This document shows, piece by piece, positions 285-39,022 of a DNA stretch of 64,000 bases. How positions within the stretch are numbered: the stretch's first letter is position 1; every line of letters starts with the position of its first letter. Source of the stretch: a virus; IMG/VR virus record IMGVR_UViG_3300037483_000453, positions 96,001-160,000 of that record; one strand, written 5' to 3'. The position numbers were made by a program, and so were the translations under genes. The notes below the pieces were generated by a model. It saw only the letters and a program-made list of their open reading frames with translations. It made no database searches and was not told the DNA's origin.

Positions 285-1184
285 ATGCTGGACTCATTTT
301 TGAAGGTTGCCTGTACAAACGAAGAGAAGACTGCCGAGCAGGCACGCCTCGTCGAAAAGATGAGGCAGCTACCTGAGGAGTATCTCCAGAAGCTTGCGTC
401 AGGTGAGGAGAAGTTGGCCTTTGGCTTCGACAAATGCGACGGTGATTGGCTGAGCCGCTTTAAGGGCACACCGCTTTTTGAGCAGGCCATCGAGCTTGAG
501 AAACAAGACCTGCAAGAGCAGATGGCCGAGCAGGCCCGATGGCGAGAAGACGACCTACTCCGGTCTCAGCGCAACGCTTCTCGCGATGAACTCAGTGTTC
601 AGAGGAAGATGCTCGAGCTTCAACTGGCTGAAGCTGAGGTTGGCGGCGGTGGGGAAGAGGAACTGCAGCCAGAGGCAAGCGAGCCACTGCCTCAAGAACC
701 AAGTGTGCAGGAGCCACCCGTATCGATACCTGTGGAAGAACCTGCAGAAGAAGCCGCAGGGCAGCCTCAGCCTGTGCAACAGCCTGCGCAGAACAACAAA
801 CCCACGGTTGATGTAAAGGTGGCCGCAGCTCATATGCGCTCGTCACTGGCTCTGCAGAACCTAGTAGGGAAGGAAGACCCGATGAAGACGGCCGAGGAGC
901 GCTTTTTAAAGCACGCCATAGGCCTCGGTATGCTGGCCAAGGGTGTCGGTGCCGCTGGTAAGAGTATCCTCGGAGCTGGTACCCAGGCTGCCAAGGCCAC
1001 CAAGGGCTTTGGTGGTTCGGGTGCACAGGCTGCCAAGATGGGCTTGGGTGCTGCCAAGGGTCAAGCAGGCAAGGTTCTACCTACAGTGGGCCGGGCAGCC
1101 AAGAGCTATGTGAAGTCCAATCCTATGCAGGCAGCTGGCATCGCAGGGGCGGCTGGCTTGGGAACGGGCTACGCATTGGGCTGA
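285..1184 (+). CDS. K-x-A repeat protein: acidic Pro/Glu linker and cationic Gly/Ala-rich C-terminal segment
   Basis: AGGAG at 274-278; motifs KVA, KTA, KLA, KLA, KVA, KTA, KHA; ends GIAGAAGLGTGYALG. Confidence 0.8.
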   Translation: MLDSFLKVACTNEEKTAEQARLVEKMRQLPEEYLQKLASGEEKLAFGFDKCDGDWLSRFKGTPLFEQAIELEKQDLQEQMAEQARWREDDLLRSQRNASRDELSVQRKMLELQLAEAEVGGGGEEELQPEASEPLPQEPSVQEPPVSIPVEEPAEEAAGQPQPVQQPAQNNKPTVDVKVAAAHMRSSLALQNLVGKEDPMKTAEERFLKHAIGLGMLAKGVGAAGKSILGAGTQAAKATKGFGGSGAQAAKMGLGAAKGQAGKVLPTVGRAAKSYVKSNPMQAAGIAGAAGLGTGYALG

Positions 1185-1185
1185 C

Positions 1186-2094
1186 ATGCCAGTTAACATC
1201 GATGTTCAACGACTGCGGGTGAGATCTCTCGATGTGGACTTTCATGAGATTTCTTGGGAACTCGCGTCAACGACAGAAGATGTTTTTGACTACACCTTTC
1301 AACTAACTCGGTCTGAAGGTCCCGAGGGCCCATATGAGCCCGTTACCCCAGAGCTCGAGGACAGCTACCTGTTCATCGACAACTTCATTCGACGTGACCA
1401 TGCGTATCGGAAGTTGTTCTATCGCATCCTTGTCAAGCACAAGGCGAGTGGTGACACCAAAGAATGGGGCCCTGTCACGCAGGAGGCAGAGGCAGACCTC
1501 ATAGCTACTGAGATCCGGAAGCACATGAACATCTTGTTCCGGGAGTTCGCTGGCCGTAGGTGCTGGGCGCTCCCTGCGCGTACCTTTGGGCAACGCTGTG
1601 CTGCTTGCTGGAATCCGACGCTACAAAAACGGAGGCACAGTGGTTGTGTCACATGCTATGACACAGGCTATACGCGGGGGTTCCACAGCCCCATAGAAGC
1701 GTGGGTGCAGTTCGATACGAATGCGAAGGCCGAACAGAACATGTCGGTAGGCCCCACCCAGCAGTCAAACACAACTGCGCGCCTTGGGTACTACCCACCT
1801 CTTAAGCCACGTGACATCATCATTGAAGGTGAGAACCGACGCTGGCGTGTGGTGCAAGTGAACATGACCGAGCAGCTACGGTCTACAATCCATCAAGAAG
1901 TTCAGCTGCATGAAATCCCCAAGTCTGACATCGAGTACAAGGTTAGCCTGGACTTGGGTACTGCCCTGAAGGATATGTGGCTGTCTCCTGCACGTAACTT
2001 CACCAACCCTCACAATCTGGGCAACTTCAAGAATGAAGAGATCCCAGACACCTTTGCAATCTACCCAACGTCTTACCCACCACGCAGAACATGA
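1186..2094 (+). CDS. putative neck/head-closure protein with a Zn-binding insert
   Basis: CAAC...CVTCYDTG Cys cluster; C-terminal PLKPRDIIIEGENRRWRVVQV resembles head-closure beta-barrel proteins; lies upstream of terminator and sheath genes. Confidence 0.45.
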   Translation: MPVNIDVQRLRVRSLDVDFHEISWELASTTEDVFDYTFQLTRSEGPEGPYEPVTPELEDSYLFIDNFIRRDHAYRKLFYRILVKHKASGDTKEWGPVTQEAEADLIATEIRKHMNILFREFAGRRCWALPARTFGQRCAACWNPTLQKRRHSGCVTCYDTGYTRGFHSPIEAWVQFDTNAKAEQNMSVGPTQQSNTTARLGYYPPLKPRDIIIEGENRRWRVVQVNMTEQLRSTIHQEVQLHEIPKSDIEYKVSLDLGTALKDMWLSPARNFTNPHNLGNFKNEEIPDTFAIYPTSYPPRRT

Positions 2095-2543
2095 AACTCA
2101 GTATCGAAATAGCGTGTGTTGGGCACATTGCCGACATGATAAAGCGGGCTCAACCAGGGTCTGCTGAGGTACCTACCGGTCCGAAAGAGCCGGACTACGC
2201 TCAGGTGCTGAAGAACATCGCCAAGCGTAAGGCCCTTGTGACGGCTAAGGAGGTTGGCGCCATCACACTGCCTATGGCTGCTGGCCTGGGGGCAGGTATG
2301 GGTTATGAGAAGTTCATGAAGAGCCGGGGGCGTAGCCCAGGTCCAGGTGCTCGCAAGATTATGGCTTTTGGGGCTCTCCCAATGGTTGGTTTTACTGCCG
2401 CAGCCGCCTACCGGGGTGCCAAAGACCTCAAGGAGAACGAGTTTACCAGGATTCGCGATGAAGAGATGGGTAAGTATGACCAGGCTATGCGCGACTACAA
2501 AGCCCAGTTGCAGCGCCGTCCTGATCCCGAGGGCCTGCCGTGA
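2091..2543 (+). CDS. small protein with KRA motif and two hydrophobic Gly-rich helices
   Basis: ATGA overlap with the upstream gene; AAGLGAGMG and AFGALPMVGFTAAAAY segments. Confidence 0.7.
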   Translation: MKLSIEIACVGHIADMIKRAQPGSAEVPTGPKEPDYAQVLKNIAKRKALVTAKEVGAITLPMAAGLGAGMGYEKFMKSRGRSPGPGARKIMAFGALPMVGFTAAAAYRGAKDLKENEFTRIRDEEMGKYDQAMRDYKAQLQRRPDPEGLP

Positions 2544-3451
2544 GCTCAAGCATCAATGAGACAAGTAGCCGGGGGTTTGAGGGCAGTAGCTTTCGCCATA
2601 CGCCACTCGAGCAGGTTCGCACACTTGTCATTAGCTTTGTGCAGGGACTCTTCAATGGGTCACCAGTGGGTAGCTACCACTTTGAGTTCGATGAGGAGAA
2701 CACAGAGATCATCATTCGTGATGAGAACCCCATCAACGTGGAACAAATCGGGCAACGGCCAGCCGTTAACTTCACGATGGGACAAGTCAGCTTCTACAAC
2801 GTCGGCATGGACGACCTGATTGACTACGACTTTTCTATCGCCAAGAAGACCAAGGGAGTTTTGGTTCCCGGAACCATCAGTGTCAACGTAAGTTCTCGTT
2901 CGGATATCGAGGCCCATAACTTGGCCTGGGTTATTGGAGAACACATCTGGCTGCTACGTGAACTTCTGCTTAGGCAGGGATTCTTTGAGATTGGTCGTGG
3001 CATCAATATTACCCCCCCTACAGCTGCGGGTAGTATTGTGTCAGGAGACCAATCCGATGAGTGGGTTGTCTCCACCATCAGTGTGCCGTGGCAGTTTGCT
3101 CGCAAGTCCGCATTTACTCCGCTAGGCCAGAAGATTGTTGACAATATTGTGGCCTTTGTAGACGTGAACCCTGCGAAGCGAGTCGAGTCAGCAGGCTGGC
3201 CATACCACCCAAGCGGGATGCCCTATAGCATCCAAGAGTGCTTTCCACCGTCATTTGCACCCTTGGCTTCTGATGTGGGCAGTAGGGATAGATCACTGCC
3301 ACTTGTGCCACACCCACTGAACCCATCGAAAACAGTAACCATCAGAACTGTTCGTCCATACCGCGCAGGTTTGCGAATGTCTTCGGCTGGAAGAGCACCG
3401 GCGCTTCCCATAGATGGCCGCTGCGTGGAAGAATCTGAAGTCGCTACGTGA
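2540..3451 (+). CDS. putative tail terminator/completion protein
   Basis: GTG start overlapping the upstream stop; immediately precedes the sheath; alternating beta/alpha pattern (RPAVNFTMG...TISVNVSSRSDIEAHNLAWVI). Confidence 0.45.
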   Translation: MSSSINETSSRGFEGSSFRHTPLEQVRTLVISFVQGLFNGSPVGSYHFEFDEENTEIIIRDENPINVEQIGQRPAVNFTMGQVSFYNVGMDDLIDYDFSIAKKTKGVLVPGTISVNVSSRSDIEAHNLAWVIGEHIWLLRELLLRQGFFEIGRGINITPPTAAGSIVSGDQSDEWVVSTISVPWQFARKSAFTPLGQKIVDNIVAFVDVNPAKRVESAGWPYHPSGMPYSIQECFPPSFAPLASDVGSRDRSLPLVPHPLNPSKTVTIRTVRPYRAGLRMSSAGRAPALPIDGRCVEESEVAT

Positions 3452-3466
3452 TGAAAGGGGCCCGAG

Positions 3467-6400
3467 ATGGCTGCTGAGCTTCCACAACCCGGGGTTGAGA
3501 TTATCCAGGAGTTTCGTTCGGTTACCCCGACGATTCTCACTCCTACTCTTGTCCCCTGCACCATCGGCGTCGCAAAGCAGATCGTGGACCTTCTGGTCGA
3601 CGACGGTTCTGGCTCATCGTCGCTGAATACTGACGCAATTGTCTCGATGCCCGGCTCTATCGTGTCTCTGCCAGGCGCTGGGGACCCGGTCGTCTATGGC
3701 GGCCTAGATGGGCTAACCCTTGCGGTGTCCATCAATAATGGGCCAGCGGTGAGCACGGTGTTTGCAGATCCTACTGCATCTGGACTCACGCCAGCTACTA
3801 TCGTCTCTCAAATCTCGGCTGCATTCACTGCTGCAGGAGTGACCGCGGCACTCGTTGAAGTGGTCGGTGACACCACCTGGCAGATGCGCACCGTGGGTGT
3901 AGGAGAGTTCCAGTTCATCGACGTTGCCTCTACCACAGGTGCTGCAGTTGCCAGCGCCTTTGGTATCGGCATTGGCAGGCGCTACCAGGGCATCAGCAAC
4001 TACAACAACCTCATCGTAGTAGTTCCTCAGGCTGCTTTTCCTGACCCGCGAGGTAACCTCGACGAGCTAGCCATTGAGAATAGTACTATCCAGGTTTTCG
4101 TTGGCGTGGGTAACGGTGGCTTCCGTGAGGCACTTAGGGATTCAGCATTCCTTAGCAACGGCTCAGCGCAAGTCCCTGCAGTGACCACCGAAGGCACCGT
4201 CGATTTGGTGCTAGCTTTTCCGGCTATTACAACGGAGACACTCGAGGTCAAAGTTAACGGTGGCGCCACCCAGACTGTGACGTTCTCTACTCCTGCGAAC
4301 GCAGCAGCGGTGCTTTCTCAGATTACCGGCCAGGTCACCGGCCTAGTCCCAACGCTCGGCACGGGTACCCCTGATGGGTTGGTACTGACAAGCGTTGTTT
4401 TGGGTGCTGCTGCGAGCATTGAGATTGTGGGTGGTACCGCCTTGACTCCGCTTGGCCTGATCGCAGAGACCGTGGTGGGTACATCTCTTGAAGCTATCGA
4501 TGATGGCAATGGTGACGCGGTTACCAGCCTGGTGCGCTTCGAGGGAGCAGACTTCACCGCTGCCCCAACGGCAGCGGTGGTTACCGGTTCTGGCGGCACC
4601 TTTGTGTTGGTCACCGGTGGTACGCTGATTGTGAGCGATGGTAACCAGATTCAAACCATCACACTTGTGGCCGGGGACGCACTGGCGGCTGTTGTTACCA
4701 AGATCAATGCTGTCATGGGGGCTGGTGCTGGCGGCCGATTGGTTGCAGCAGATGCTGGCGGTGAGCTTGAGCTGACTCACACCATCTTGGGTACCGACTC
4801 CTACATCGACATTCGTGGTGGCACGGCTGTGACCGAGCTTGGGCTGACCGTGGGTGTTACCTACGGCCCTACCCCTTCACTACCCAAGCCCGGCGACGAG
4901 CTGTGGATAGACGGTATCTTCCTTGGAGAGGTTTCCGAGGTGGCACCGGGTGGCGACGTGGACGTGCTGAGAGTCTCTGTTCAGAGCACCATTACGGCCA
5001 ACCTGGGAACCTACTATCACTTGGTTGCCAAGCGCTTGGATGGGCTTGATCCTTTGCGCCCGGCAGCCGACCTCATCGTGGACGGTAATGGTAACGCAGT
5101 TCTCAAGCACGAGCAGCTGCGCAACACGCCCCAGGGCGACGCTATTACGGCAACTGGTCCGATCTACCTCTCGTATGTTGCTGTCCGTAAAGACGTCACT
5201 TCAAGTGCGAAGCAGCCAGGTCTACTTCGTTTTGATGATACGACGCAGCTTGAGGCAGCCTTGTCGCCCATCAATGCCGAGAACCCCTTGGCTCTAGGCT
5301 TGTTTTTCTCGTTGCTCGGTGCTCCGGGTATCCAGTGTACCGGGCTTGGTGTTGATGCGGTGAGTGCCGACTCTCCCTTTGGTACGGTGGAGGCATTCAC
5401 GCGGGCTGCCGAGTATCTCGAGGGTTACGAGGTCTACGCGCTAGCGCCGCTGTCTCATGAAGAGACTGTTCACCAGGTCTTTGCGTCACACGTCTCTGCC
5501 CTCAGTTCTCCTGAACTCAAGGGCGAGCGTGTGGTTCTCGTCAACCCGTCGGTCCCCACCTACCGTGTGGATACCTTGGTCGCTTCGGGGACCGACGGGG
5601 CTACCGTGGGCCCAACAGGGCTGTCTTTTGATACCAAGGTGGCCAACCTCAGCGCGCTTATTCAAGCACAAGGGATTAGCCCTGTTGGCACCATCCCAGC
5701 TAGCAAGAACCTGTTCCTTGATATTGGTAGTGACGCAAAGCACTACTCCATAGCGACGGTGACAGGCTCTATCGTGGGCCTCCGGGTCACTTTCGCCTCG
5801 GGCGAGAATGACGATGCATATTTCTCCACCACAGATCTCAATGACCCACCATTGGGTGCAGCTCTTGTAGATGAGGCGTTCTCGATCAAGGTGCGTGGGT
5901 TGCCTCTGCAGACGGCGGCAGGCAAAGACTTTACGGGTATCGCGGAAACTGTGGCGGCCGTCGGTAGGAGTTATAGCAACCGCCGTCTATGGATGACTTT
6001 TCCAGATCAGTGTGCTGCGTCCATTGGGGGCATTGAGCAGATCATCGATGGGTTCTACATCAACGCGGCTGTAGCCGGGATGATCGGCCAGAACCCGCCC
6101 CAGCAGTCATTCACCAACTTTCCAATCCCAGGCTTCACCCGGGTTTTGGGATCGAATGATACCTTCAATGCAAGCCAGCTGAATATCATGGCTGGTGGTG
6201 GTAGCTGGATCTATGTACAGGAGGCTCAAGGAGCCCCCTTGCTTTCACGGATGGCACTAACTACCGACCTGACATCCATTGAGACTCGAACTGACTCCAT
6301 TACCAAGGTGGTGGACTACGCGGCGAAGTTCATGCGTGCGTCGCTACGTAACTTCATCGGTCGATTCAACATTACCCAGGGCTTCTTGGACTCGCTTGGG

Positions 6401-6568
6401 GCAGTCATCCAAGGCGTGCTCGGGCTGCTCGTTGAAACAGGTGTGCTTATTGGCGGCACCCTCAACAACATCATCCAGGACGAAGACGCACCAGACACGG
6501 TGCTTATCGACGTTACTCTGGATGTTCCGTTCCCCGCAAACTACATTAGGCTCACGTTGGTTATCTGA
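3467..6568 (+). CDS. contractile tail sheath protein, 1033 aa with inserted domains
   Basis: Sheath-type N-terminus (PGVEIIQEF) and C-terminus (ITKVVDYAAKFMRASLRNFIGRFN...APDTVLIDVTLDVPFPANYIRLTLVI). Confidence 0.9.
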   Translation: MAAELPQPGVEIIQEFRSVTPTILTPTLVPCTIGVAKQIVDLLVDDGSGSSSLNTDAIVSMPGSIVSLPGAGDPVVYGGLDGLTLAVSINNGPAVSTVFADPTASGLTPATIVSQISAAFTAAGVTAALVEVVGDTTWQMRTVGVGEFQFIDVASTTGAAVASAFGIGIGRRYQGISNYNNLIVVVPQAAFPDPRGNLDELAIENSTIQVFVGVGNGGFREALRDSAFLSNGSAQVPAVTTEGTVDLVLAFPAITTETLEVKVNGGATQTVTFSTPANAAAVLSQITGQVTGLVPTLGTGTPDGLVLTSVVLGAAASIEIVGGTALTPLGLIAETVVGTSLEAIDDGNGDAVTSLVRFEGADFTAAPTAAVVTGSGGTFVLVTGGTLIVSDGNQIQTITLVAGDALAAVVTKINAVMGAGAGGRLVAADAGGELELTHTILGTDSYIDIRGGTAVTELGLTVGVTYGPTPSLPKPGDELWIDGIFLGEVSEVAPGGDVDVLRVSVQSTITANLGTYYHLVAKRLDGLDPLRPAADLIVDGNGNAVLKHEQLRNTPQGDAITATGPIYLSYVAVRKDVTSSAKQPGLLRFDDTTQLEAALSPINAENPLALGLFFSLLGAPGIQCTGLGVDAVSADSPFGTVEAFTRAAEYLEGYEVYALAPLSHEETVHQVFASHVSALSSPELKGERVVLVNPSVPTYRVDTLVASGTDGATVGPTGLSFDTKVANLSALIQAQGISPVGTIPASKNLFLDIGSDAKHYSIATVTGSIVGLRVTFASGENDDAYFSTTDLNDPPLGAALVDEAFSIKVRGLPLQTAAGKDFTGIAETVAAVGRSYSNRRLWMTFPDQCAASIGGIEQIIDGFYINAAVAGMIGQNPPQQSFTNFPIPGFTRVLGSNDTFNASQLNIMAGGGSWIYVQEAQGAPLLSRMALTTDLTSIETRTDSITKVVDYAAKFMRASLRNFIGRFNITQGFLDSLGAVIQGVLGLLVETGVLIGGTLNNIIQDEDAPDTVLIDVTLDVPFPANYIRLTLVI

Positions 6569-6632
6569 AATGATACTTCGTATGTAAAGTGAAAATGAGG
6601 GCCTACTCAACGTTGTTGGAACGGCTTAAGCC

Positions 6633-7073
6633 ATGAACATAGGATACATACGGAAGGTAGCTGAGCTAGAACGAGGCAGGAGTGCGCTTGATGAGCTCAC
6701 TGCTGGGCCGACTACCCCTCTCGATGACGTGTTTTTGCACAAGGCTGCCAGTGCCGAAGACCCTGAGTTGCTTCGTATCGCTGAGCACATGGGTGGGGAC
6801 CCCCTTGCCAACTATGAAAACCTAGGTGGCACGTTCAAAAAGCAAGCGTTCGGTACGCCGATGTTCCAGGCATCTGCTGCACCAGATCCGGTTGTTCAAG
6901 CTGCCGGTGTAACAGCAGGGCTAAAGAGCCCCACATCTGCGCCGTCAGGGCCCAGACCACCTTCATCTAGGGGCTCTGCCATGGGTGGTGGTTCAAGCGT
7001 GCCGAGTTCGGTGCCGCAGCCAAGTGCACCCAGTATTTCAGGTGCGGCTGGCCAGGGTGCAGGGAGCCAGTAG
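6633..7073 (+). CDS. K-x-A motif protein with Pro/Ser/Gly-rich tail
   Basis: KVA, KAA and KQAFG motifs; lies between sheath and tube. Confidence 0.7.
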   Translation: MNIGYIRKVAELERGRSALDELTAGPTTPLDDVFLHKAASAEDPELLRIAEHMGGDPLANYENLGGTFKKQAFGTPMFQASAAPDPVVQAAGVTAGLKSPTSAPSGPRPPSSRGSAMGGGSSVPSSVPQPSAPSISGAAGQGAGSQ

Positions 7074-7101
7074 GGTATACTTACCCTGAGGAGATCGGAT
7101 C

Positions 7102-7887
7102 ATGGCAGGCAACTTCAGCGAATGGGCGCCCTATACCAACTATGTGCAGTCGGGCATGGTGGATGGAGCGTACGCCAATGCGGGCTTCACGATGTTGGCA
7201 GCGGGCCCCCCTCGCATTGCGAATATCGGGGGAGCAGCTAACCTGGCTTCTGCCACGAGTGGGGCTGGCACGGGGGCCGATCAAATCGTGCATCCCATCG
7301 GTATTGTGCAGAACTTCAATCTGTCACATACGCGCCAGTTCAGCCGAATCTTTGAGATTGGCTCAGAGCGTAGTTACTTCATCTCTGGTAGGGCTGTGGG
7401 CCAGCTTGGCCTAGCACGTATCTACTATCATGGTGCGTCGCTGTTGCGCGTCTTGTATGCGTATTACCAAGACTTGATCCCACCTACGCTGGTGCCAGCT
7501 ATGTGGCCCAACAGTGGTGCTGCAACGCAGAGCAATCCACACGATGTCATCATTCCACCGGGCTATGAGAACATCTACCTCAACTTGGCATCCGACCTGT
7601 TTGCACAGCCCATTGGCATCATGATGTACATCCGTGACATCAACCAGGACACCCTGGGTGCGATGTACTTTGAGGCGTGCTACCTGCCCAACCATTCGTG
7701 GCAGACCGATAGTCAAGGTGTGCTGATCCAGGAATCGGTGGCCGTACAGTTCGAGCGGGGGGTGCCTGTAGGTGTAAGCGCCCTGAGCCTTATTGGTGCT
7801 GCGGACCCCAACGCAGGTGGTGCGAATATCGCCGACACCTTCTTGCCATCAGGCGAGCAGAAGTTCGCTCTACCGAATGCAGGCTAG
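7102..7887 (+). CDS. tail tube protein
   Basis: GAGGAG RBS; PIGIVQNFNLSHTRQFSRIFEIGSERSYFISG and the C-terminal QESVAVQFER fit myovirus tube proteins; downstream of sheath. Confidence 0.75.
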   Translation: MAGNFSEWAPYTNYVQSGMVDGAYANAGFTMLAAGPPRIANIGGAANLASATSGAGTGADQIVHPIGIVQNFNLSHTRQFSRIFEIGSERSYFISGRAVGQLGLARIYYHGASLLRVLYAYYQDLIPPTLVPAMWPNSGAATQSNPHDVIIPPGYENIYLNLASDLFAQPIGIMMYIRDINQDTLGAMYFEACYLPNHSWQTDSQGVLIQESVAVQFERGVPVGVSALSLIGAADPNAGGANIADTFLPSGEQKFALPNAG

Positions 7888-7890
7888 TAG

Positions 7891-8259: not shown

Positions 8260-8266
8260 GTGCAGT

Positions 8267-8889: not shown

Positions 8890-8925
8890 CTGGGCATGTG
8901 CTGAGTATTAAGGCACACTATTGCT

Positions 8926-9597
8926 ATGCCCTCTGACAGCAAACGGCCACCGCCTACTCCACTGCGGCCCAGCCAGCTGCAGCTAGCTAACAAGACCATG
9001 TCTCAGACGTTGGAGGACCTAACCGATCCCCACGGTCCCCTCTACCTGCTAGTTGCTGAAGTTAGGGCAGGCAACCAGCTCACAGTTGAGAGCAACAGGT
9101 TGGCTCTCTCCAATCAACGCCGGCTAAGCTTTGCCCAGGTTGGTCTGTTGCTATGCCTATGCGGTATTGGGTTGAGTGCTTGGTATGTGGACGAGACAGT
9201 GGTGAAGCTCAAGGAGCTGCAGGAGCTACAGGACCAGCAGGCCGAGGTGACCATGTCCTTTGTGAACCTGATTCAAGAAACTGAGGCTAAAGTTGAGGCT
9301 ACCCAGAAGTTGATCAACAGTGCCCCAAAGGTTATTTCAGATAACAAGGGCGGTCTCGTTGTGGTGGCCACTATTGCAGACTCTACCTCTATCGAGGTGG
9401 TAGATGTGCCCAAGGCTCCTAGGGGCCCAGTCAAGCGTACTACTGCTGGTGCTGCCAGGGCAGCTAACGGGTGGGATGAGGTACAGGATATGATTGACAA
9501 CACCGCCAGGGCGAAGAGCATCAGTGCGGGTAAGCCTCAGCTTGAGCAGCAGCTTCTTGAGATCCCGCTGCAGGTGAAAAAGGCTCAGATGAGATGA
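8926..9597 (+). CDS. membrane-anchored coiled-coil protein
   Basis: TM segment VGLLLCLCGIGLSAWYV followed by a Q/E/L coiled coil. Confidence 0.6.
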   Translation: MPSDSKRPPPTPLRPSQLQLANKTMSQTLEDLTDPHGPLYLLVAEVRAGNQLTVESNRLALSNQRRLSFAQVGLLLCLCGIGLSAWYVDETVVKLKELQELQDQQAEVTMSFVNLIQETEAKVEATQKLINSAPKVISDNKGGLVVVATIADSTSIEVVDVPKAPRGPVKRTTAGAARAANGWDEVQDMIDNTARAKSISAGKPQLEQQLLEIPLQVKKAQMR

Positions 9598-10118
9598 GAG
9601 CGCCTGATGCCGAACTCTTGGAGATCTACGGTACGGTCAAGGAGGCTGATGCCACAGTTTTGGCCGCCCGTATTGCTGCGGCTGTGCTGGGTCTTGGCCT
9701 CATGGAGGCTGACCGCGAGCATGTAGAAGAGCAGCGTGAAGAGGCAGCGATGCTGAATGACCTAGCGCGATACCAGGAAGCCAAGAAGATGAGGGCTATG
9801 GTCAGCGCTATGGAGATGGCTAAGTCTGCTGGTGTCACCATGGCGAGTATGCACAAGGAGGCTTTTGGAGCCTTCGTCGGTAAGGGCCTACAGAACGTGG
9901 CCAAAGCAAACAAGTCAGGGCCGTCTCTCGGCTCAGCGGCCGTCGGGGTAGTGAAGAAGGTGGCGCCAACGGTCGCTGTCCTAGGTGCCGGCTTGGCCGG
10001 GTACAAGGGGTTGTCTGCTCTACGCGACTATGCCAACACCCCGAAGAGCTCGGGCACGTGGGGCACCAAGCGCAGCTTGCGCCATAATGTCAATGAGTAT
10101 GGGCAACCTGCTTTGTAA
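9594..10118 (+). CDS. K-x-A motif protein with cationic amphipathic C-terminal segment
   Basis: KEA, KSA, KEAFG then FVGKGLQNVAK...VAVLGAGLAGYKG. Confidence 0.75.
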   Translation: MRAPDAELLEIYGTVKEADATVLAARIAAAVLGLGLMEADREHVEEQREEAAMLNDLARYQEAKKMRAMVSAMEMAKSAGVTMASMHKEAFGAFVGKGLQNVAKANKSGPSLGSAAVGVVKKVAPTVAVLGAGLAGYKGLSALRDYANTPKSSGTWGTKRSLRHNVNEYGQPAL

Positions 10119-10130
10119 CCTCGCTGTGGG

Positions 10131-10797: not shown

Positions 10798-10915
10798 CGG
10801 GCCTCCAAAAAAAAATACAACTACATGCAGAGAGAAGAACACCGGGTCTTGATCTACGTATGACAGTGTCCTATAGGGTGTAGTTCACTACAACTCCCTT
10901 CGAAAGGAAACCAGG

Positions 10916-11596
10916 ATGGCATATACCAAGATGACGGTTACTGAGTTCAAGAAGAGGCTCAACAGTGGCCTCTATGAGGCCCCGGGCGGTGCCCGCCGTG
11001 CAATCGGCAAGGCTGACTTCGACGATGACACGAAAACCAAGTGTCACAAGGCAATCCTCAAGCACTTCGGTGAGGGGGCAGTCAAGCCAAAGGCGGCTAA
11101 GAAAGAGACCAAGAAGACCGCGGCAAAGGCGGTCAAGTCGGTAAAAAAGGCAGCCGCCAAACCAGTTGAGGCTGAAGCCCCAGCGTCCAAAAAGAAAGCT
11201 GCCAAGGGGACGCCCCGCGTGAAGAGGGCTGCAGCTTCTGTGCTGACGGTAGATGCAGCAGCTCTCGCAGACCTGCACCTGGCCAACGAGCGCATTGGCA
11301 CCATCATGCAGGCCATCGAAACCATGAAGGCCGCCAAAGAGGCTTACCCGGAACTTGATACCAGTGAGGGTGCTGCCGTTGCTGGTGCTGCTCTGACAGA
11401 TATCATGCAGAGTGTGCATAAGACCGTGAGGGGTGAGCAGCTGGAGCTGCCAGACCCTACCGTGCTGGAGAACCTGGCAAAGACTGCCCCGGCAGCACAG
11501 GGCCTGCCTGGGCATGAAAGCCCTGTGCGGGTGCCGGACAACTCAACGCCTGTTGTCCTACCTGCGGTCCGGCCCAGTCTCACGGGAGCTAGCTAG
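10916..11596 (+). CDS. Lys/Ala-rich histone-H1-like putative DNA-binding protein
   Basis: AAAGGA RBS; KPKAAKKETKKTAAKAVKSVKKAAAKP tract. Confidence 0.65.
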   Translation: MAYTKMTVTEFKKRLNSGLYEAPGGARRAIGKADFDDDTKTKCHKAILKHFGEGAVKPKAAKKETKKTAAKAVKSVKKAAAKPVEAEAPASKKKAAKGTPRVKRAAASVLTVDAAALADLHLANERIGTIMQAIETMKAAKEAYPELDTSEGAAVAGAALTDIMQSVHKTVRGEQLELPDPTVLENLAKTAPAAQGLPGHESPVRVPDNSTPVVLPAVRPSLTGAS

Positions 11597-26004: not shown

Positions 26005-26024
26005 ATTCGTCTCCTTCCATGTGT

Positions 26025-26227: not shown

Positions 26228-26231
26228 GGTT

Positions 26232-29883: not shown

Positions 29884-29899
29884 CATTGAGGACAAGTCG

Positions 29900-31905: not shown

Positions 31906-31907
31906 TC

Positions 31908-34900
31908 ATGCCGGGGTTTGGGCAGCGCTTACGCCTTAGGCTTTTCTTGGAGGGCATAGAGATTCCCGTCATCTCGGCGAACGTGCAGGCGGCGCCAAAC
32001 AGCCCAACTGCATGCTCAATACAGATCCCGCCCCTAGCAGAGGGAACACGGCTGCTGCCCAGGACACTAGTGCACGTGTTCTTCCTGGATGACTATGAGT
32101 CCAAACTTCCCTACATGACAATGGGGAACAAGCGCACTGGTACCCAGCGACGCACACCTACCGAATACCAACGAGATGAGGATAGTCTTAATGGTTTCAT
32201 TTCTAATCTGGCTGACTCAGGTGACGTAGCACAAGCAAATGCCGGCGCAGAAAACCAACCGCTGGGATCATCCATCACTCAGTACAAGCTCTTATTTGGT
32301 GGTGAGATAGTTGGCTTCGTTTGGAACAAGAATCAAGCAAACCGGGCGCTGGTGCTCCAATGCATGGACTGGTCCAACTACTGGGATTACGCCTATCAAT
32401 ATTCCAACACAGGTATCTTTGGCCCCGGTCGCAAAGCCATGTTCTCCGGTGGGGCCACCAACCTCTTTACCGACTTCTTGGAGGGCAAGGGTAGCGTCAT
32501 CACAAGGATCGTTGCCTCTGGACGTTGTAACAGCTTTCCAAAGCTGAAGGGGTTAGCCGCGGGCATCATACGGCTCATGGAGGCCATTGGTGGCACCTAC
32601 TACCCAAACCCGGGTGCGGCTAGTCAGAAGCGCTTGGCAGGGCAAAACCTGTTCTTCTCAACAGCAGAGTTGCGGCTGCATATCACACATATGGTGGCGG
32701 CGATTGAGAATGACAAAACGTCACAGACATTACTGAGACGTCACGGCTGGCACCGGCTCTTTAGCAGGCAGCTGGGTGGCCTGGGCGGCCAGGTGAGCAT
32801 ACGTAAGGCCATCAACGCGTTGCAAGGGATCATCTTCCACGAGACGTATGGGCAGCCCTGCCCATATTACCGGCCAGGCTTGGATAATACAGTCTCAGGC
32901 CAGAAGCGCATGAGGCTAGTTGACTCTCCTCAGTTTAGCAACGTAGCGACAATAGCAGAGCAGGTAAGAAGCTCGGTTGAAGCCATCTCAGTTTTACTGC
33001 AGTCGGTCACATCAGAGCAGATTGCGTCAGTGGGCGGGTCTTCCACGTTTAGGGCAAGTATCAGCCAGCGGCTGGGGGCACAGCGCAAGCTGCTCAACAG
33101 GTTGCAGGCAACTGTCACAACCCAGAGAGCCCCATCATCAGCCAAGTCTCTCATCAGCCATTCTACCAGGAAGATCACAACGGCCTCCACCCGCTTTAGG
33201 CGGTGGAGACTTAGCGCACCCGAAGCGGTGCGCACAGGGGTGACTAAACAGTTGGATGAGGTGGTTTCTGATCTCAGCCGTCTCAGCAGGCTGACCATCA
33301 ATCTCACGCCCAGGGGAATGCAGCAGCCCGCTCGATTGAACCAGCATATCCTGCGTCCAGACATCTGGTTTGGGGCACCACCACGATGCAACGTGCTGTT
33401 TCCCGAGGACTATGACTCGATCAGCTACCAGCGCATGTTCATGCAGGAGCCGACTCGCCTGTTACTGAAGACCAACGATGAGTTTTTTGGCGAGGACTTT
33501 TTGTTTGACAAGCTTTACTTTGCTCCACAAACAAGCTCGGTGAAAAAGAACAAGGCTCAGATGCGCAGTATGATGAACGGCGATTTGCTCGACCATGAGC
33601 TATTCACCGGTATTCTGCCTGTGTTTGAGAAGAGCGGCGAGTTCAACGTATTTGCCAGCAAGAGCGGCACACAGAAGCAGATGAACAAGGTAGGGTTCGC
33701 TCAACGCTCTGCCAACTTCTTGTACTTCAAGTACCGCTTCAACGCTCGACGTATGCGTGTGAGCGGTAGATTCAACCCCTTCATAGCCTGTGGGTTTCCG
33801 GGGCTCATTATTGACAAGCCTGTGGATGGTCCAACGGCGGCTCTGCATAATGAGCTACGTGCCAAGCAAAACCTACCAAGGTCTGAGATCTCCCAAACAC
33901 TGGGCACCAACTTTCTGGGCAACTTCACCGAGGTAAGTCACTCTATATCCCAGTCTGAGAGCCATGGCAGGACGGAGATCAGCTGCAGCTACCCTCGTCA
34001 GGTGGAGGAGTCTGTTGAGTTCCTGGGCGCAGCTGAGGTGGTGCAGACTGTGCGGCGTAAAGTGGGTGAGACCATGAGGTCTACAGATGTGGCTGCTATC
34101 AATGCTCCCAAAATCTTGTCGTTTGGTCCTAACGGTGGGCGCATCAAGAACGTCACTGACGTCACTGCGTCCTACAACTCCGGTAGTGTAGAGAACCGCG
34201 TAGCCCTCTACCAAGCAAAGGGCAGAAAGGGAGGTCGGGTACAGCGCGTAGATGTCCCGGTAGGCGTGCCCACTAGCGGCCATGCCTTAGGTTCAGAGGA
34301 TGTGACTGAGCTGACAGGAGGTCCTACCAGGTCCGTTGTTTTCAGGGCGTACCGTGTCGAAGAGGAGGTACCACGCTTCCGACGTGAAGCTGCGGATATC
34401 CCAGCTGAAGTTTTGATGACTCCAGGTTGGTATGACAACACGGTATGGAACACGGCAAATATTGGTAAGGCGTATCAAGAACTCTTTGGCACCGGCTCCA
34501 TCACAGACCCACAGACCGTCAATGACAATCTAGGTGGCTCGAGTGTGCCATCTGAGTCTTCGGTAGAGGCCACCGAGAGATCTGAGGAGGCCAGTAGCAT
34601 CGAAGACCCTCGCAATGATGCACTTGCATACCTCAGTCTTGATGAGGGCTCTAGCATCCAGGATGCAGTGGATTTCTTGACCCTCACCTACAGCTTCATT
34701 AGACAAAATGGGTACAATGTTGACGAGTTCAAGCGTGCGTATGCCTGGCGTCCCATTGCCACAATGGTGGACATTTTTGGCACTACCAACCTCGAGTTCT
34801 CATCTGACGGTCAGGATGTCATTAGTGGGATCGAAGGGTTTCACTCCCGTGCTTTTGGTCCGTATGATGACCTGTTTGGTTTGGTGAGCCCCGAAATAGA

Positions 34901-35024
34901 AAACATCCTAGGTATCAAGCGGGGCAGTGCGAGTGCACAAAAAGCAGACACTCGAAAGCGAAAGCAGGAGGCTGTGCAGCACCTCTCTGCCTCTCTAACA
35001 CACTCACGAGGTATACTCGGGTAG
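31908..35024 (+). CDS. putative baseplate hub protein (gp27/VgrG-like)
   Basis: LRLFLEGIEIPVISANV..., LLFGGEIVGF..., LVLQCMDW, GRFNPFIACGFPGLII hub-like pattern; synteny. Confidence 0.6.
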   Translation: MPGFGQRLRLRLFLEGIEIPVISANVQAAPNSPTACSIQIPPLAEGTRLLPRTLVHVFFLDDYESKLPYMTMGNKRTGTQRRTPTEYQRDEDSLNGFISNLADSGDVAQANAGAENQPLGSSITQYKLLFGGEIVGFVWNKNQANRALVLQCMDWSNYWDYAYQYSNTGIFGPGRKAMFSGGATNLFTDFLEGKGSVITRIVASGRCNSFPKLKGLAAGIIRLMEAIGGTYYPNPGAASQKRLAGQNLFFSTAELRLHITHMVAAIENDKTSQTLLRRHGWHRLFSRQLGGLGGQVSIRKAINALQGIIFHETYGQPCPYYRPGLDNTVSGQKRMRLVDSPQFSNVATIAEQVRSSVEAISVLLQSVTSEQIASVGGSSTFRASISQRLGAQRKLLNRLQATVTTQRAPSSAKSLISHSTRKITTASTRFRRWRLSAPEAVRTGVTKQLDEVVSDLSRLSRLTINLTPRGMQQPARLNQHILRPDIWFGAPPRCNVLFPEDYDSISYQRMFMQEPTRLLLKTNDEFFGEDFLFDKLYFAPQTSSVKKNKAQMRSMMNGDLLDHELFTGILPVFEKSGEFNVFASKSGTQKQMNKVGFAQRSANFLYFKYRFNARRMRVSGRFNPFIACGFPGLIIDKPVDGPTAALHNELRAKQNLPRSEISQTLGTNFLGNFTEVSHSISQSESHGRTEISCSYPRQVEESVEFLGAAEVVQTVRRKVGETMRSTDVAAINAPKILSFGPNGGRIKNVTDVTASYNSGSVENRVALYQAKGRKGGRVQRVDVPVGVPTSGHALGSEDVTELTGGPTRSVVFRAYRVEEEVPRFRREAADIPAEVLMTPGWYDNTVWNTANIGKAYQELFGTGSITDPQTVNDNLGGSSVPSESSVEATERSEEASSIEDPRNDALAYLSLDEGSSIQDAVDFLTLTYSFIRQNGYNVDEFKRAYAWRPIATMVDIFGTTNLEFSSDGQDVISGIEGFHSRAFGPYDDLFGLVSPEIENILGIKRGSASAQKADTRKRKQEAVQHLSASLTHSRGILG

Positions 35025-35026
35025 CC

Positions 35027-37171
35027 ATGTCGTCGCGTAAGAGTTTCAGTATTGCCCAGTCCCGAAAGGGTAGAAGGCCAATGTCAGTGGCGACCATGCT
35101 GAAAAAGGAGAAAGAGGGTACCCTCTACAAGCGCACCAAGCTTGGTGCTGACCTCGAGGCCGCACGAGATAAAACTGTTCACGCGCTCGAGGCCCTCAGA
35201 GAAGGGAACAAATACAGCAAGGCTTTGGAGGATGTCAAAGAGGTATCTTCTGCCGTGGGCCAGAAGTTGGGTTTGCCCGAGCACAGACCGTTCGACAAGT
35301 TCAAGGAGTGGGGCAAGGCCCTCCAGACCAAAACGGCTGGGAAGTATGGCAAGAACAGCGCCGGCTTCGACCTGCAGGGAAAGACAGAGGTACAGGGCCT
35401 CCCCATCGCTATTGAGAACCGGGTGGGTTCTGTACGCGAGGGAAAGAACGACGATGGTTCAAAGTGGAGAACCAAGTTCCGCGCGCCCTATGGCTATATC
35501 GAGGGTACCAAGGGTGCCGACGGTGACGAGATCGACGCGTACGTGGGCCCGGACAAAAGTGCACCCAAGGCGTTCGTGGTGCATCAAAAGAAGAGTAACG
35601 GCAGCCACGACGAGGACACGGTGATGCTGGGCTTCAGGTCCAAGGGCGACGCCAAGAAATGCATCCTCAAGCACTACGAAGACAAGAGCCAGGTTGGTTC
35701 TGTCGATGACATGTCTGTGGAAACGCTGCAGGCGCATCTTGCTCGAGCGGATGGTAAGAAGATCTCCAAACTGGCATTCATGGATGAGTCAAACAGGTTC
35801 CTCAGGAAAATGATCATTGGTGGGGTGGCGGGTGCCGCTGGGGGCCTAGGACATGAGCTCATCTTCCCAACTAGGGCCATCCCAGCAACACAGTGGTCAC
35901 AGGCGCTCAACAACAAAGATCCCGACGCCATACTCGTGGGGGGTAAGGTACTGACGCCTAGTGATATTTCCGCTCGGCAACAGGCCTTTAGTAGGGTCTC
36001 TGCTACCGCAAAGAAGGGCAAACAGCTGACTGTCAGCAAAGCACAGCCCGGGGAACGCGTGGTTGCTTCTGGCAGGAACTACATTGTAGAGGTTCCCCGA
36101 CCACATAAAGATGTAGCTGGCCGCGTGGCACCACTAGTTCAGCACGTAGATCGTAGGGAGGGTTCTCCCGAGGAGCTGCTGAGTAAGCTACGGCTTGTTG
36201 CCGCCAAAGAAGTTGATGGTGTGCCTAAGCATGCTGCTCAGGTGGCTGCACTGCGTGGAGTGGGGCGTCGTCTGGCTAAGAAGCCCGTTAAAGATGAGGT
36301 GTATGAGAAGACGGCGGCAGCGCTGGAAAATACCCTACGGACGGCATTCCTGGACGAGCTCCAGAAGATATCCCAAGCTGGCGGGGCGCCTGCCTGGGAT
36401 GAGGAGTTCGCCTCGGGTAGCCTGGTTGATGGTCTGATCAAAGAGGCGGTATTTCGCCAGATGGCCGGGAGCCTGAAGCGCCTAGCCGTAGGAGGTACCA
36501 CCCCCGCAGGAGTTCCTGTCAAAGGTGCTCTGTCTGGCCTTGTTGGCGCTGGTAAGCGCCTGGAGGCCGTGGGAGCAGGCATGAAGACCAGCCCGGCACA
36601 ACGTATCAGGGCAGCCGGCGCCGCACCTCAAGAGGCACGGCAGCTTGCGCAGCAGGCTCAGCAGTTTGGTGTTAGAGCACCTGGCACTGTGAAACGTGTT
36701 GCTGGGGAAGCTGTTCAGGGCGCTGGTGGCCATGTGACCCACGCAAGCCCCCTAAAGATGGCACTCAATCCACTGGGTACCGTGATTGGTGGGGGTATCG
36801 AGGGTGGAACTAAAGGGGTAGGCAAGGAGCTGGTGCGGTCCACGGGTTTGGCAGGCAGAGTGGGAGCCGGTGGCTTCCGTGGCTCTCTGGGCCGCGGTTT
36901 GCAGAAGGCAGCTCCGACAGCGGGCCTGTTAGGCGAGGTGGGTACCCTAGGCGCCATCGGTGGTATGGCTCATCTACCCCTGTCACACACCGGAGCAATC
37001 GGAGCTGGCTTGATAAAAGCATCGCCTGTCATTGGCAAGGGCTTAGCTACTCTAGGTCAAGTTGGGGGCCATATTGGTGCTGACGCGCTTGGTACCGCGG
37101 TACAACGTTCAGCTGCACATGCTCCACGGCTTTTTAACAGGCTCGGAAATGCCGCGGGGTATTTGGGATGA
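35027..37171 (+). CDS. multidomain protein with an inorganic-pyrophosphatase-like (polyvalent-protein InPase) domain and K-x-A-delimited Gly-rich segments
   Basis: GLPIAIENRVGSVREG...YGYIEGTKGADGDEIDAYVGP...HDEDTVMLGF; KLAF, KHAA, KTAA, AFLDELQKIS, KEAVF. Confidence 0.8.
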   Translation: MSSRKSFSIAQSRKGRRPMSVATMLKKEKEGTLYKRTKLGADLEAARDKTVHALEALREGNKYSKALEDVKEVSSAVGQKLGLPEHRPFDKFKEWGKALQTKTAGKYGKNSAGFDLQGKTEVQGLPIAIENRVGSVREGKNDDGSKWRTKFRAPYGYIEGTKGADGDEIDAYVGPDKSAPKAFVVHQKKSNGSHDEDTVMLGFRSKGDAKKCILKHYEDKSQVGSVDDMSVETLQAHLARADGKKISKLAFMDESNRFLRKMIIGGVAGAAGGLGHELIFPTRAIPATQWSQALNNKDPDAILVGGKVLTPSDISARQQAFSRVSATAKKGKQLTVSKAQPGERVVASGRNYIVEVPRPHKDVAGRVAPLVQHVDRREGSPEELLSKLRLVAAKEVDGVPKHAAQVAALRGVGRRLAKKPVKDEVYEKTAAALENTLRTAFLDELQKISQAGGAPAWDEEFASGSLVDGLIKEAVFRQMAGSLKRLAVGGTTPAGVPVKGALSGLVGAGKRLEAVGAGMKTSPAQRIRAAGAAPQEARQLAQQAQQFGVRAPGTVKRVAGEAVQGAGGHVTHASPLKMALNPLGTVIGGGIEGGTKGVGKELVRSTGLAGRVGAGGFRGSLGRGLQKAAPTAGLLGEVGTLGAIGGMAHLPLSHTGAIGAGLIKASPVIGKGLATLGQVGGHIGADALGTAVQRSAAHAPRLFNRLGNAAGYLG

Positions 37172-37632
37172 TCGATTTTGGGTACACCAAGTTGTCCATG
37201 GTGCAAGAGCTTGAAGCACTGTGTGCGATAACTGAGGGTCAGCTAGCGAAGCTGGCGGCCGAGGTCACCAAGGACGACGCTAAGAGGTCTTTGAAGCGCT
37301 TGAAGGGCCTGGACGCCAGTGCTCCTACATTGGGGGAACTCGGGCGCGGTGCTGCTGTGGGCTCCGTTGTTATGCCCCTATCCAGCTTAGCCTGGCGTGC
37401 GATCGCTGGTCCAAAAGGGCGCGTGGCCGGTCCAAAGGGCCCAGGGCAGCTGTGGCCGGGCATGCGTCCAACAGCGGCTACTGCAGCTCAAGGAGCGGTG
37501 CTCGGAAGTTTCTTGCCGGCCGGGCGACACAAGCTCGAGCAGGAAGCTGAAAAGCAGAAGCTCAGGGAGTACGTTGGACATACTCGACGGGGAACCCTCC
37601 GAGGCAGGGTTAGAAAGTACACAGGGATCTAA
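37168..37632 (+). CDS. K-x-A motif protein, basic and Gly-rich
   Basis: ATGA overlap; AKLAA; GRGAAVG. Confidence 0.7.
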   Translation: MIDFGYTKLSMVQELEALCAITEGQLAKLAAEVTKDDAKRSLKRLKGLDASAPTLGELGRGAAVGSVVMPLSSLAWRAIAGPKGRVAGPKGPGQLWPGMRPTAATAAQGAVLGSFLPAGRHKLEQEAEKQKLREYVGHTRRGTLRGRVRKYTGI

Positions 37633-38618
37633 TGCCAGCTGCAATCCATAACCGGGCCGAGCACCTGTTGGCCAAGAACCCAAAGATGGGCAAGTCGAAG
37701 GCATTTGCCATTGCTACCCAGCAGATGCATGCCATTGGCAAGACCCCCAAGGGATATGGCACGTCTAAGGGTAAGTCCGTAGCAAGGGCCAAGTACCCAA
37801 ACAAGAAGGGTTACGTGAAGACTCCCAACCCGGGCAACTTGGAGTCAACTAAGATGGCTGCTTTTGTAGCAGAAATACAGACCATGGGATTCTACCCCGG
37901 CAAAAAGAAAGAGGCTTACAGTGTCTCCGAGTACAGTGGCCCACTTAGCTATGGCAAGTTCAAGATGGAGAGCCAGATTCCCCCATACAGACACCCACCA
38001 GTGAAGACAGCTGGACCGCCCTCAAGTGGTAAGGAGAAACGTGCATTCATAGGCCTAACTGGTGTGGCAGCCGGCTTCTACCCTGGCAAGAACATCGCTG
38101 GTGAGACTGCTGCAGCGACGGCACCTGAAGGGCGGGTGACACGGTCAGAGAACATCGCTCGGAATCTAGCCATCGTTGGGGGCCCGTTGGGTGGACTTGC
38201 AGGATTGGCAGCAGCTAAGAAGTACAACCTTGCTGGTCATCTGGGTCGTGCTGTTGGTGGCCACTTGGGGTGGGAGGAAATGAAAGCTCTGCAACAGTAC
38301 GGTGTACCTTTTGGTGCTGGCGCAATGGGTAGCATGGCCGGTGGCGCTGTGGTGGGAGGAGGCGTAGGCTTGGCCCAGAGATTACGTGGTCCTCTGCATT
38401 CAAAGAAGGAGGGTGGCAAAGAAAAGAAAGCGTACGACCCCTCCCCGTTGAAAGGGCCCGGCACCTTGGGCAATGTGGACATACCAGGGATGCGTAAGAT
38501 GCAGACCCCGGCTCGTCAGCTGCAGGACTCCAAGAATGTGGCGTATTCGAAGCCGACCAAGCCTGATGCCAGCAAGGCGCTGAATATCAAGCTGCCTACC
38601 ATCGGCTCTGCCCTCTGA
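37632..38618 (+). CDS. K-x-A repeat protein with basic N-terminus and glycine-zipper segment
   Basis: KMAAF, KEAY, KRAF, KKAY; GGPLGGLAGLAAA, GAMGSMAGGAVVGGGVG. Confidence 0.75.
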   Translation: MPAAIHNRAEHLLAKNPKMGKSKAFAIATQQMHAIGKTPKGYGTSKGKSVARAKYPNKKGYVKTPNPGNLESTKMAAFVAEIQTMGFYPGKKKEAYSVSEYSGPLSYGKFKMESQIPPYRHPPVKTAGPPSSGKEKRAFIGLTGVAAGFYPGKNIAGETAAATAPEGRVTRSENIARNLAIVGGPLGGLAGLAAAKKYNLAGHLGRAVGGHLGWEEMKALQQYGVPFGAGAMGSMAGGAVVGGGVGLAQRLRGPLHSKKEGGKEKKAYDPSPLKGPGTLGNVDIPGMRKMQTPARQLQDSKNVAYSKPTKPDASKALNIKLPTIGSAL

Positions 38619-39022
38619 TGGATCCACGGATTTTCAGTGCATTTGCAGATGAGATGGAGAAGCAAGCCTTGATTGAGAGGCTTGTTCGCTTGGGTGCCAC
38701 TGACATCCCAAAGACCCCGCGGCTCTTCATGAAAAAGCGCAGTCCTGCTGAGCTACAGGCGCTGCAGGGATCAGTAACCCAACTGGGTCAGAAGCATGTG
38801 GCAGACCCAATTATGCGGGTAGCCGAGAGAGGGTTGCAGAAACTACCGGCAGGAAGGACACAGGATACTGCACGGTCAGTCGCCAAGACCGTGGCAAAGG
38901 ACCCTGTTGGCGCTGTGGCTACTATACCGATTCCAATACCAGGGGCACAACCTGCTTACTTCGCTGGTAAGAGGCTGCTCGAGCGTGGCATCGATAAGGC
39001 GTTCCCCATCAAGGGCAAGTAA
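38618..39022 (+). CDS. K-x-A motif protein
   Basis: Starts MDPRIFSAFADEMEKQALIERL. Confidence 0.75.
   Translation: MDPRIFSAFADEMEKQALIERLVRLGATDIPKTPRLFMKKRSPAELQALQGSVTQLGQKHVADPIMRVAERGLQKLPAGRTQDTARSVAKTVAKDPVGAVATIPIPIPGAQPAYFAGKRLLERGIDKAFPIKGK

Follow-up and report, generated by a model that had tools for sequence, protein, structure and literature searches.

Head-maturation proteases determine the protein content of a capsid and the form in which those proteins are injected into the host. The T4 protease gp21 cuts L/I-x-E sites, and the internal proteins of T4 carry capsid-targeting propeptides; the sites of phiKZ read S/A/G-x-E. Herpesvirus assemblins (UL26 type, as in herpes simplex virus, HSV, and varicella-zoster virus, VZV) cut release and maturation sites of the form (V/L/I)-x-A|S, in which Ala precedes Ser. 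For the giant-phage proteases phiKZ gp175 and SPN3US gp245 the motifs S/A/G-x-E and A-x-E have been described, and the cuts made by SPN3US gp245 mostly remove N-terminal propeptides, which hold several motif copies, and include self-cleavage (PMC10052503). Here we examine another tripeptide, K-x-A, which recurs in proteins encoded by a 64,000-nucleotide stretch of phage DNA (the window; bases 96001–160000 of the 184,901-bp contig IMGVR_UViG_3300037483_000453, rated 99% complete in IMG/VR). The original prediction, based on eight window genes between positions 285 and 39022, took K-x-A for a maturation or head-targeting signal cut after Ala. We find that K-x-A is a genuine, conserved code linked to a head protease of assemblin fold, and that its centre is a set of scaffold-like head genes upstream of the window, not the eight genes. 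The tag is most likely the cutting signal of this herpesvirus-like protease, both in this phage and in many relatives.

To rank K-x-A without bias, all 400 residue pairs were scanned at gaps of 0–3, giving 1,600 gapped pairs. In the head block (the + strand genes at genome positions 73–107.6 kb, mostly upstream of the window) K-x-A ranked first, with 105 copies observed against 55.5 expected (p = 2e-9), and it also ranked first in the part of the block upstream of the window alone (75 versus 37.9). By the same counting A-x-K, K-x-x-A and K-A showed no enrichment, indicating that the signal is not an effect of helices or composition. The richest genes are those at genome positions 73184, 82724, 87345, 88116, 89503 and 51523. 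A K-x-A falls within the first 30 residues of 13 of the 32 block genes, where 5.3 would be expected, an excess that fits short cleavable leaders.

The code extends well beyond a single genome. In alignments of five head families (31–39% identity) the lysine is kept at 0.54–0.80 within K-x-A as compared to 0.19–0.31 elsewhere; homologues of these families carry K-x-A at 2.1–4.3 times expectation, and the sites stay in place as the sequence on either side changes. Together the conserved copies define the consensus acidic-x-E-K-[L/V/T/I]-A-[S/A/E/G]-[A/V]. This phage belongs to a large clade of uncultured 185–195-kb phages, with 293 loci whose major capsid protein (MCP) is 72–91% identical to its own. 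When seven divergent loci were each analysed singly, K-x-A ranked first every time (p from 1e-7 to 5e-11); control families taken from these loci gave no K-x-A signal. The nearest cultured relatives, all distant, are Salmonella phage Arash and Vibrio phages D69, D148 and D181, which share this protease and show the motif bias as well. K-x-A ranked first in Arash gp218–gp225 (44 versus 19.7; rank 423 in the Arash tail block) and in genes 0273–0281 of D181 (50 versus 21.0). A literature search on phage Arash found nothing. In phage G the signal was weak (rank 7, 20 versus 11), and the code can therefore not be claimed for that more distant branch; its gp19 retains I-L-E-K-V-A-S after its domain, and a search of the phage G paper for cleavage data found none.

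The original prediction had proposed to look for a prohead protease in the flanking sequence and for the motif at the capsid N-terminus, and both searches gave a candidate. The putative protease is encoded by an intein-interrupted gene of 954 aa at genome positions 84521–87385 (window −11479 to −8615), 8.6 kb upstream of the window, between TerL (77051) and the MCP gene (90455) in the head-morphogenesis module; the order is the same in Arash, where protease gp222 lies ahead of MCP gp226. The gene carries Hint and LAGLIDADG domains, the intein being inserted directly after a D-V-S-M-G motif, and intein-free homologues are about 578 aa long. An AlphaFold2 model of the N-terminal 290 residues, built from a 50-sequence alignment, reached a predicted local distance difference test (pLDDT) of 89 and a predicted template modelling score (pTM) of 0.83; an earlier model of the full-length protein with 11 sequences (pLDDT 47.5) was unusable. 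A structure search with this model returned VZV assemblin (Z 9.8), T4 gp21 (Z 9.5; PDB 5JBL, 130 residues aligned, root-mean-square deviation 2.8 Å) and pseudorabies virus protease (Z 9.4), and the top 30 rows were all assemblins or gp21. BFVD gave 90 matches at E ≤ 1e-3, many of them named prohead protease and among them phage G gp19, for which one paper uses the name head maturation protease (PMC12484599). When PDB sequences were searched with a profile, the sole match, to Hcp, was spurious, and a search of the genome for Peptidase_S78 (PF04586), Peptidase_S77 (PF03420) and ClpP found no match, with the Pfam S78 and S77 models searched at E ≤ 1. As judged by its model, the 954-aa product is a member of the assemblin/gp21 fold class of prohead serine proteases (herpes S21, T4 gp21 S77, HK97 gp4 S78) that lies outside the S77 and S78 sequence families. 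Its own family is unnamed and large, with 1,452 close members and 2,618 representatives at 50% clustering. The idea that the 954-aa intein gene encodes the portal was rejected on the alignment and the fold result, and the genes at genome positions 83960, 87345, 88116, 89503 and 89887 were set aside as protease candidates, as they do not have the catalytic residue set.

Further inserts are suggested in this family and in the terminase gene. Many representatives of the protease family (P0121–P0269), 900–1,700 aa in length, match the catalytic-domain profile in two to four separate stretches, which suggests that they carry one to three inteins or other inserts. In the 941-aa large terminase (genome 77051–79876) a PhoH-like segment separates two stretches that match the terminase profile, suggesting an insert within this gene as well.

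The K-x-A sites are arranged around the catalytic domain. K30-x-A32 (FEKTAA), present in 47 of 49 members, ends a low-confidence N-terminal segment of the model; E-K-x-A-S (EMEKTAS) comes after the final domain strand in 39 of 49; and another conserved K-x-A stands about 55 residues before the C-terminus. Overall the C-extension of roughly 290 residues holds 247 K-x-A across the family against 85 expected. In the MCP (genome 90455) K24-V-A26 is invariant, and the MCPs of Arash and D181 have K-E-A at residues 26–28. Since the sites bracket the catalytic domain of the protease and occupy residues 24–26 of the MCP, K-x-A is most likely the site of this very protease. The idea of an after-Ala maturation signal thereby gains good indirect support, from the protease fold with its flanking sites, the MCP site, the enrichment and conservation throughout the clade and the two cultured phages.

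We favour, with moderate confidence, the reading that the phage's own prohead protease recognises K-x-A and probably cuts after the Ala, and that the eight window genes encode at most peripheral substrates. From the observed motif enrichment, motif conservation, protease fold and domain bracketing we infer that cleavage takes place at all, that it falls after the Ala, and that the products of the eight genes get into the head. The site would be acidic-x-E-K-[L/V/T/I]-A followed by S/A/E/G, and the protease would consist of the N-terminal ~290 residues of the 954-aa product. Inside the prohead the enzyme would cut itself free at two places, K30-x-A32 and the E-K-x-A-S cluster after its domain, trim 26 residues off the MCP and degrade the K-x-A-rich scaffold-like proteins encoded at genome positions 82724, 87345, 88116 and 89503. 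The eight window proteins would at most be peripheral substrates, from which a short leader, comparable to the capsid-targeting propeptides of T4, may be removed at an N-terminal site (residues 7–45) or which may be cut at a domain junction; the protein of gene 35027, with K-x-A sites bracketing its InPase cargo domain, is the clearest case.

How far the code reaches into the eight genes was assessed gene by gene. All eight open reading frames (ORFs) exist, on the + strand, and contain the K-x-A tripeptides that had been listed. Their products are mutually unrelated, as had been noted (best BLASTP E value among them 0.07), and the only hits of the eight proteins in Pfam and PHROGs were InPase in 35027 and, below threshold, a glycine-zipper in 285. 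One or two positionally conserved sites are nevertheless found in seven of the eight families, despite identities of 17–44%; the exception is 37168. Most of the sites originally listed are not conserved. It had also been proposed that K-x-A marks segment boundaries, which holds for a minority, namely K-L-A-F directly behind the InPase domain in 35027 and the N-terminal sites of 285, 2091, 6633, 9594 and 38618, and not for the rest. Finally, all eight genes had been placed in structural blocks. This is borne out for 285 and 2091, which stand after the capsid genes and ahead of the tail sheath gene (3467), and for 6633 and 9594, which follow the sheath gene; the neighbours of the genes at 35027–39022 are without family match.

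Gene 285 (285..1184) encodes a Gly/Ala/Lys-rich protein of 299 aa with the seven K-x-A previously counted, four of them in an N-terminal cluster (K7, K15, K36 and K43). Only K36-L-A (nt 390–398) and K43-L-A-F (nt 411–419) are conserved, being kept in 0.59 and 0.72, respectively, of 29 homologues, where K43 aligns as KLA[Y/F/H/S]; K178 and K209 are kept in 0–0.03. The homologues carry K-x-A at 1.4 times expectation. The 285 protein is modelled as largely disordered (pLDDT 0.50), and ESM Atlas gave no usable leads for 285 or 37632, both being modelled as largely disordered. Gene 2091 (2091..2543, 150 aa) has one N-terminal site, K18-R-A (nt 2142–2150). BLAST found no homologues of it; all seven genuine syntenic counterparts (99–135 aa) have one K-x-A at residues 7–21, six of them at 15–21.

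Gene 6633 (6633..7073, 146 aa) contains K8-V-A (nt 6654–6662), K37-A-A-S (nt 6741–6749) and K70-Q-A-F-G (nt 6840–6848). Its five syntenic counterparts (73–176 aa) hold 17 K-x-A against 6.0 expected (p = 2e-4); in every counterpart a K-x-A falls among the first 22 residues. The ORF stands in an unexpected place for one so rich in the protease motif: in window 3467–7887 a 1033-aa tail sheath gene (weak PHROG match) is followed by 6633 and then by a highly conserved Lys-poor gene of 261 aa, which probably encodes the tail tube. Gene 9594 (9594..10118, 174 aa) has K16-E-A (nt 9639–9647) and K88-E-A-F-G (nt 9855–9863), the latter followed by a Gly-rich hydrophobic tail. K-x-A in its family is not significantly enriched (28 versus 20.4, p = 0.06) and recurs at two positions; the N-terminal site, at residues 14–25, occurs in four of six counterparts, and a site of the form M-x-K-E-A-[F/G/I/L] in several.

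Gene 37168 (37168..37632, 154 aa) is the weakest candidate. Its single site, K28-L-A (nt 37249–37257), is kept as K-x-A in 0.09 of 11 homologues and as lysine alone in 0.64, the homologues together having 44 K-x-A versus 27 expected. Gene 37632 (37632..38618, 328 aa) encodes a conserved N-terminal module and contains five K-x-A, not the four originally counted; K74-M-A (nt 37851–37859) is partly conserved (K 0.85, A 0.38), KEAY, KTAG, KRAF and KKAY are kept in 0–0.08, and the enrichment in the family is 1.13. In gene 38618 (38618..39022, 134 aa) the only K-x-A, K15-Q-A-L (nt 38660–38668), opens a module reading K-x-A-L-[L/I]-E-R-L-V-R-L-G-A-T-D and is conserved in nine of nine homologues. In the fused relatives L108 and L109 the K-x-A of the 38618-like module lies at the junction with the upstream modules.

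The 35027 gene (35027..37171) encodes a polyvalent-type protein of 714 aa with ten K-x-A and a Gly-rich C-terminal half. Its InPase domain (PF18823, residues 108–237, nt 35348–35737; E 8e-38, 129.8 bits against a cut-off of 26.8) is bracketed by K102-T-A (nt 35330–35338) and K248-L-A-F (nt 35768–35776). K248 alone is positionally conserved, as K-[L/I/V]-[A/S]; the eight sites besides K102 and K248 are unconserved, and K177 lies inside the InPase domain. In 32 of 36 distinct InPase proteins a K-x-A follows the domain within 35 residues (about 24% expected), most often in the form G-E-K-[V/I]-A-[S/G]. Moreover, in about 24 of 149 protease representatives the InPase domain is found inside the protease C-extension. 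In one member of the protease family (P0105) a 55%-identical InPase sits between the conserved E-K-V-A|Y and L-K-L-A|F sites of the extension. InPase domains have been argued to be packaged in virions, and a fusion to a portal has been noted (Iyer et al. 2017, PMC5512222). The bracketing of the InPase domain is the best support for the cargo part of the original prediction, and, given the presence of the same domain in protease precursors of relatives, the 35027 protein may itself be packaged. Pfam and PHROGs recognised a single domain in 35027, whereas polyvalent proteins combine two or more effector domains.

Relatives also contain larger versions of this block. L109:15468–18320 (950 aa) has a 37632-type N-terminal module fused to others and ends in a 38618-like module, and in L112:16586–18937 a 37632-type module is fused with a helicase-like segment bearing GSGKT and DEAH motifs. 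As relatives fuse these modules in one ORF, the block at window 35027–39022 resembles, by gene arrangement, a polyvalent protein whose parts are encoded by individual genes. No family match was found for the large genes adjoining it.

Several points weigh against protease substrates among the eight genes and against the favoured reading at large. When the eight genes are compared with residue-shuffled controls the enrichment is marginal (31 versus 22.8, p ~0.05), in contrast to the strong enrichment in the upstream head block, and K-x-A ranks only 64th of the 1,600 gapped pairs. In the five families that could be aligned, K-x-A stands at 0.83–1.39 times expectation (median 0.89) once reference-aligned sites are excluded. 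About two thirds of the K-x-A sites in the eight genes are unconserved and score like background. Genes 6633 and 9594 belong to the tail module, where a prohead protease is not normally active, and the K-x-A of 38618 could equally be part of the first helix of the domain, that is, a structural feature and not a cut site. The same may apply to an internal K299-I-A of the MCP, which may be merely a structural residue. With regard to the enzyme, H118, S174 (in D-V-S-M-G) and H216 are invariant in 50 diverse members, and their prediction as catalytic residues is based on this invariance and not on superposition with gp21 or assemblin. Pfam protease models matched none of 6 intein-free homologues and 50 family members, and a search of literature and data found proteomic or N-terminal sequencing data for no member phage.

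These points raise the alternative that the protease code is real only in the upstream head and scaffold genes, and that the eight genes, picked as Lys/Ala-rich proteins, contain K-x-A mostly by chance and are not substrates. To the low enrichment, the rank, the median of 0.89 and the tail position of two genes it can add that most sites are conserved at 0–0.2, and that a weight matrix trained solely on core sites of relatives gave a median of −2.8 for the eight-gene sites, compared with +2.3 for core sites. With background at −4.9, the eight-gene scores are intermediate (p = 0.026), which also speaks for the favoured reading, and those above zero belong mostly to N-terminal sites. Against chance stand the positionally conserved sites kept by seven of the eight families at such low identity, the excess in the 6633 family, the N-terminal site in seven of seven 2091 counterparts and the InPase bracketing in 32 of 36 proteins. 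In addition, in the same exclusion test the eight-gene families (median 0.89) exceed other virion genes (0.59, p = 0.012), though not the expectation from composition. We regard this alternative as less likely than the favoured reading. The proposal that the eight genes encode polyprotein-like precursors from which many small peptides are released is not upheld, as the sites are mostly unconserved, score low with the matrix and lose their enrichment once the reference-aligned sites are removed. For the eight genes the result is thus mostly corrective: they would be peripheral substrates at best, with one or two sites each and none credible in 37168.

A subclass of the motif with an aromatic residue was also considered. 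K-x-A-[FY] occurs seven times in the eight genes against 1.0 expected, a pattern chosen post hoc. Among homologues the aromatic residue was borne out in the 285 family (50 versus 13.2) and the 35027 family (21 versus 8.9) only, and these sites score poorly with the core matrix; K-x-A-F/Y was consequently rejected as a general subclass.

A further alternative, which we consider rather improbable, is that K-x-A is never cut and serves for docking or targeting by binding the scaffold, the capsid interior or the protease extension. Enrichment and conservation demonstrate selection on the motif, not cutting, and the hydrophobic/acidic leader that precedes many K-x-A sites could be a binding helix. 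A docking motif would not, however, be expected to bracket an assemblin-fold catalytic domain in the manner of self-release sites and to recur at the MCP N-terminus and at the borders of a cargo domain, nor to share the P3-x-P1 format of T4 and phiKZ sites with Ala before Ser as in herpes assemblin; the sites of the protease itself, moreover, lie in low-confidence, flexible segments of the model. That the entire signal arises artefactually from the composition or secondary structure of Lys/Ala-rich helical or low-complexity proteins is effectively refuted, for although some K-x-A runs do stem from unconserved KKAAKK-type low complexity (genome 92738, window 10916), K-x-A alone stands out of 1,600 pairs when A-x-K, K-x-x-A and K-A do not, and it does so again in seven relatives and two cultured phages at conserved positions with divergent flanks.

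Some further genes in and around the head block deserve mention. The KKAAKK-type Lys/Ala runs are found in window 10916–11596 (ten K-x-A) and genome 92738–93355 (six); the copies in 92738 lack conservation and the search for 10916 gave a single homologue, and these K-x-A probably inflate the raw counts without being true sites. When all + strand genes in window 1–39100 were pooled, K-x-A showed no excess (72 versus 63). A 512-aa head-block gene (genome 94728–96266, + strand) reaches into the window with its 3' end (1..266) and has a conserved K-L-A-F-G site just upstream of it, with K186-L-A kept in 0.87 of 15 homologues. The gene at window 40634–41422, absent from the original list, begins M-S-D-N-P-I-D-S-Y-L-R-D-K-K-K-V-A-S, with K-x-A kept in 0.65 of homologues. 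This N-terminus is similar to the M-G-N-P-I-D-D-Y-L-E-I-T-S-Q-K-T-A-G of genome 83960, and from the sequences the two may have a common leader. Three genes far from the MCP gene (genome 50783–52473 and 73184–75442) have 6, 8 and 12 K-x-A versus 2.2, 2.1 and 3.5 expected, which puts them with the strongest enrichments of the genome, and they possibly encode portal or internal proteins. In the rest of the genome outside the head block K-x-A numbered 139 versus 168 expected. This slight depletion outside the virion blocks, together with values of 0.5–0.9 times expectation in neighbouring structural families of relatives, may be caused by avoidance of the motif.

Whether the family as a whole forms a very large unnamed branch of assemblin-fold phage proteases with Lys-x-Ala specificity, nearer to the Ala-Ser of herpesviruses than to Glu, and doubling as a cargo carrier (with enzyme domains placed between cut sites of the C-extension or encoded as separate K-x-A-bordered genes) is in our estimate about evenly balanced. 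Phage proteases with mapped sites in searchable papers all cut after Glu, and a literature search on a KXA motif in phages found nothing; a Lys-x-Ala rule, if true, would be a new specificity among phage enzymes of this fold. It would also link the phage members of the fold more tightly to the herpesvirus assemblins, and it would make mature capsid proteins, scaffolds and injected cargo such as InPase predictable from sequence for thousands of uncultured ~185-kb phages.

Compared with T4 gp21, the system described here has the same fold, a gene in the head module and a three-residue motif of P3-x-P1 format, which is likewise present in scaffold-like proteins, at the MCP N-terminus and in the protease itself, and short N-terminal leaders end in the motif. 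It differs in that the motif ends in Ala and not Glu, with Lys at P3, in that Peptidase_S77 profiles do not match, and in that the enzyme has a C-extension of ~290 residues and an intein; the cut sites here are predicted from sequence. With phiKZ and SPN3US it has in common the large genome and the many head-internal or ejected proteins, but P1 is Glu there and Ala here, and the clade is unrelated to phiKZ-like phages. The 35027 protein resembles the polyvalent proteins of Iyer et al. in its PF18823 domain, with the addition that in relatives InPase is also fused to the prohead protease. For polyvalent proteins, built-in metallopeptidase domains have been proposed to do the processing (PMC5512222); the borders in 35027 carry the prohead-protease motif instead, and no metallopeptidase domain was detected in it. 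An extension-released protease, a trimmed capsid protein and motif-rich scaffold-like proteins form a layout that is common to T4 gp21, SPN3US gp245 and herpes UL26. The herpes assemblins gave the best structural match (VZV, Z 9.8), and in them a protease is also followed by a long extension in one polypeptide. Here, too, sites lie after the domain and ~55 residues before the C-terminus, and the predicted cut after Ala would commonly fall before Ser. The differences are Lys in place of a hydrophobic residue at P3, the bacteriophage origin, many more sites spread over many proteins and a sequence identity of 10–13%.

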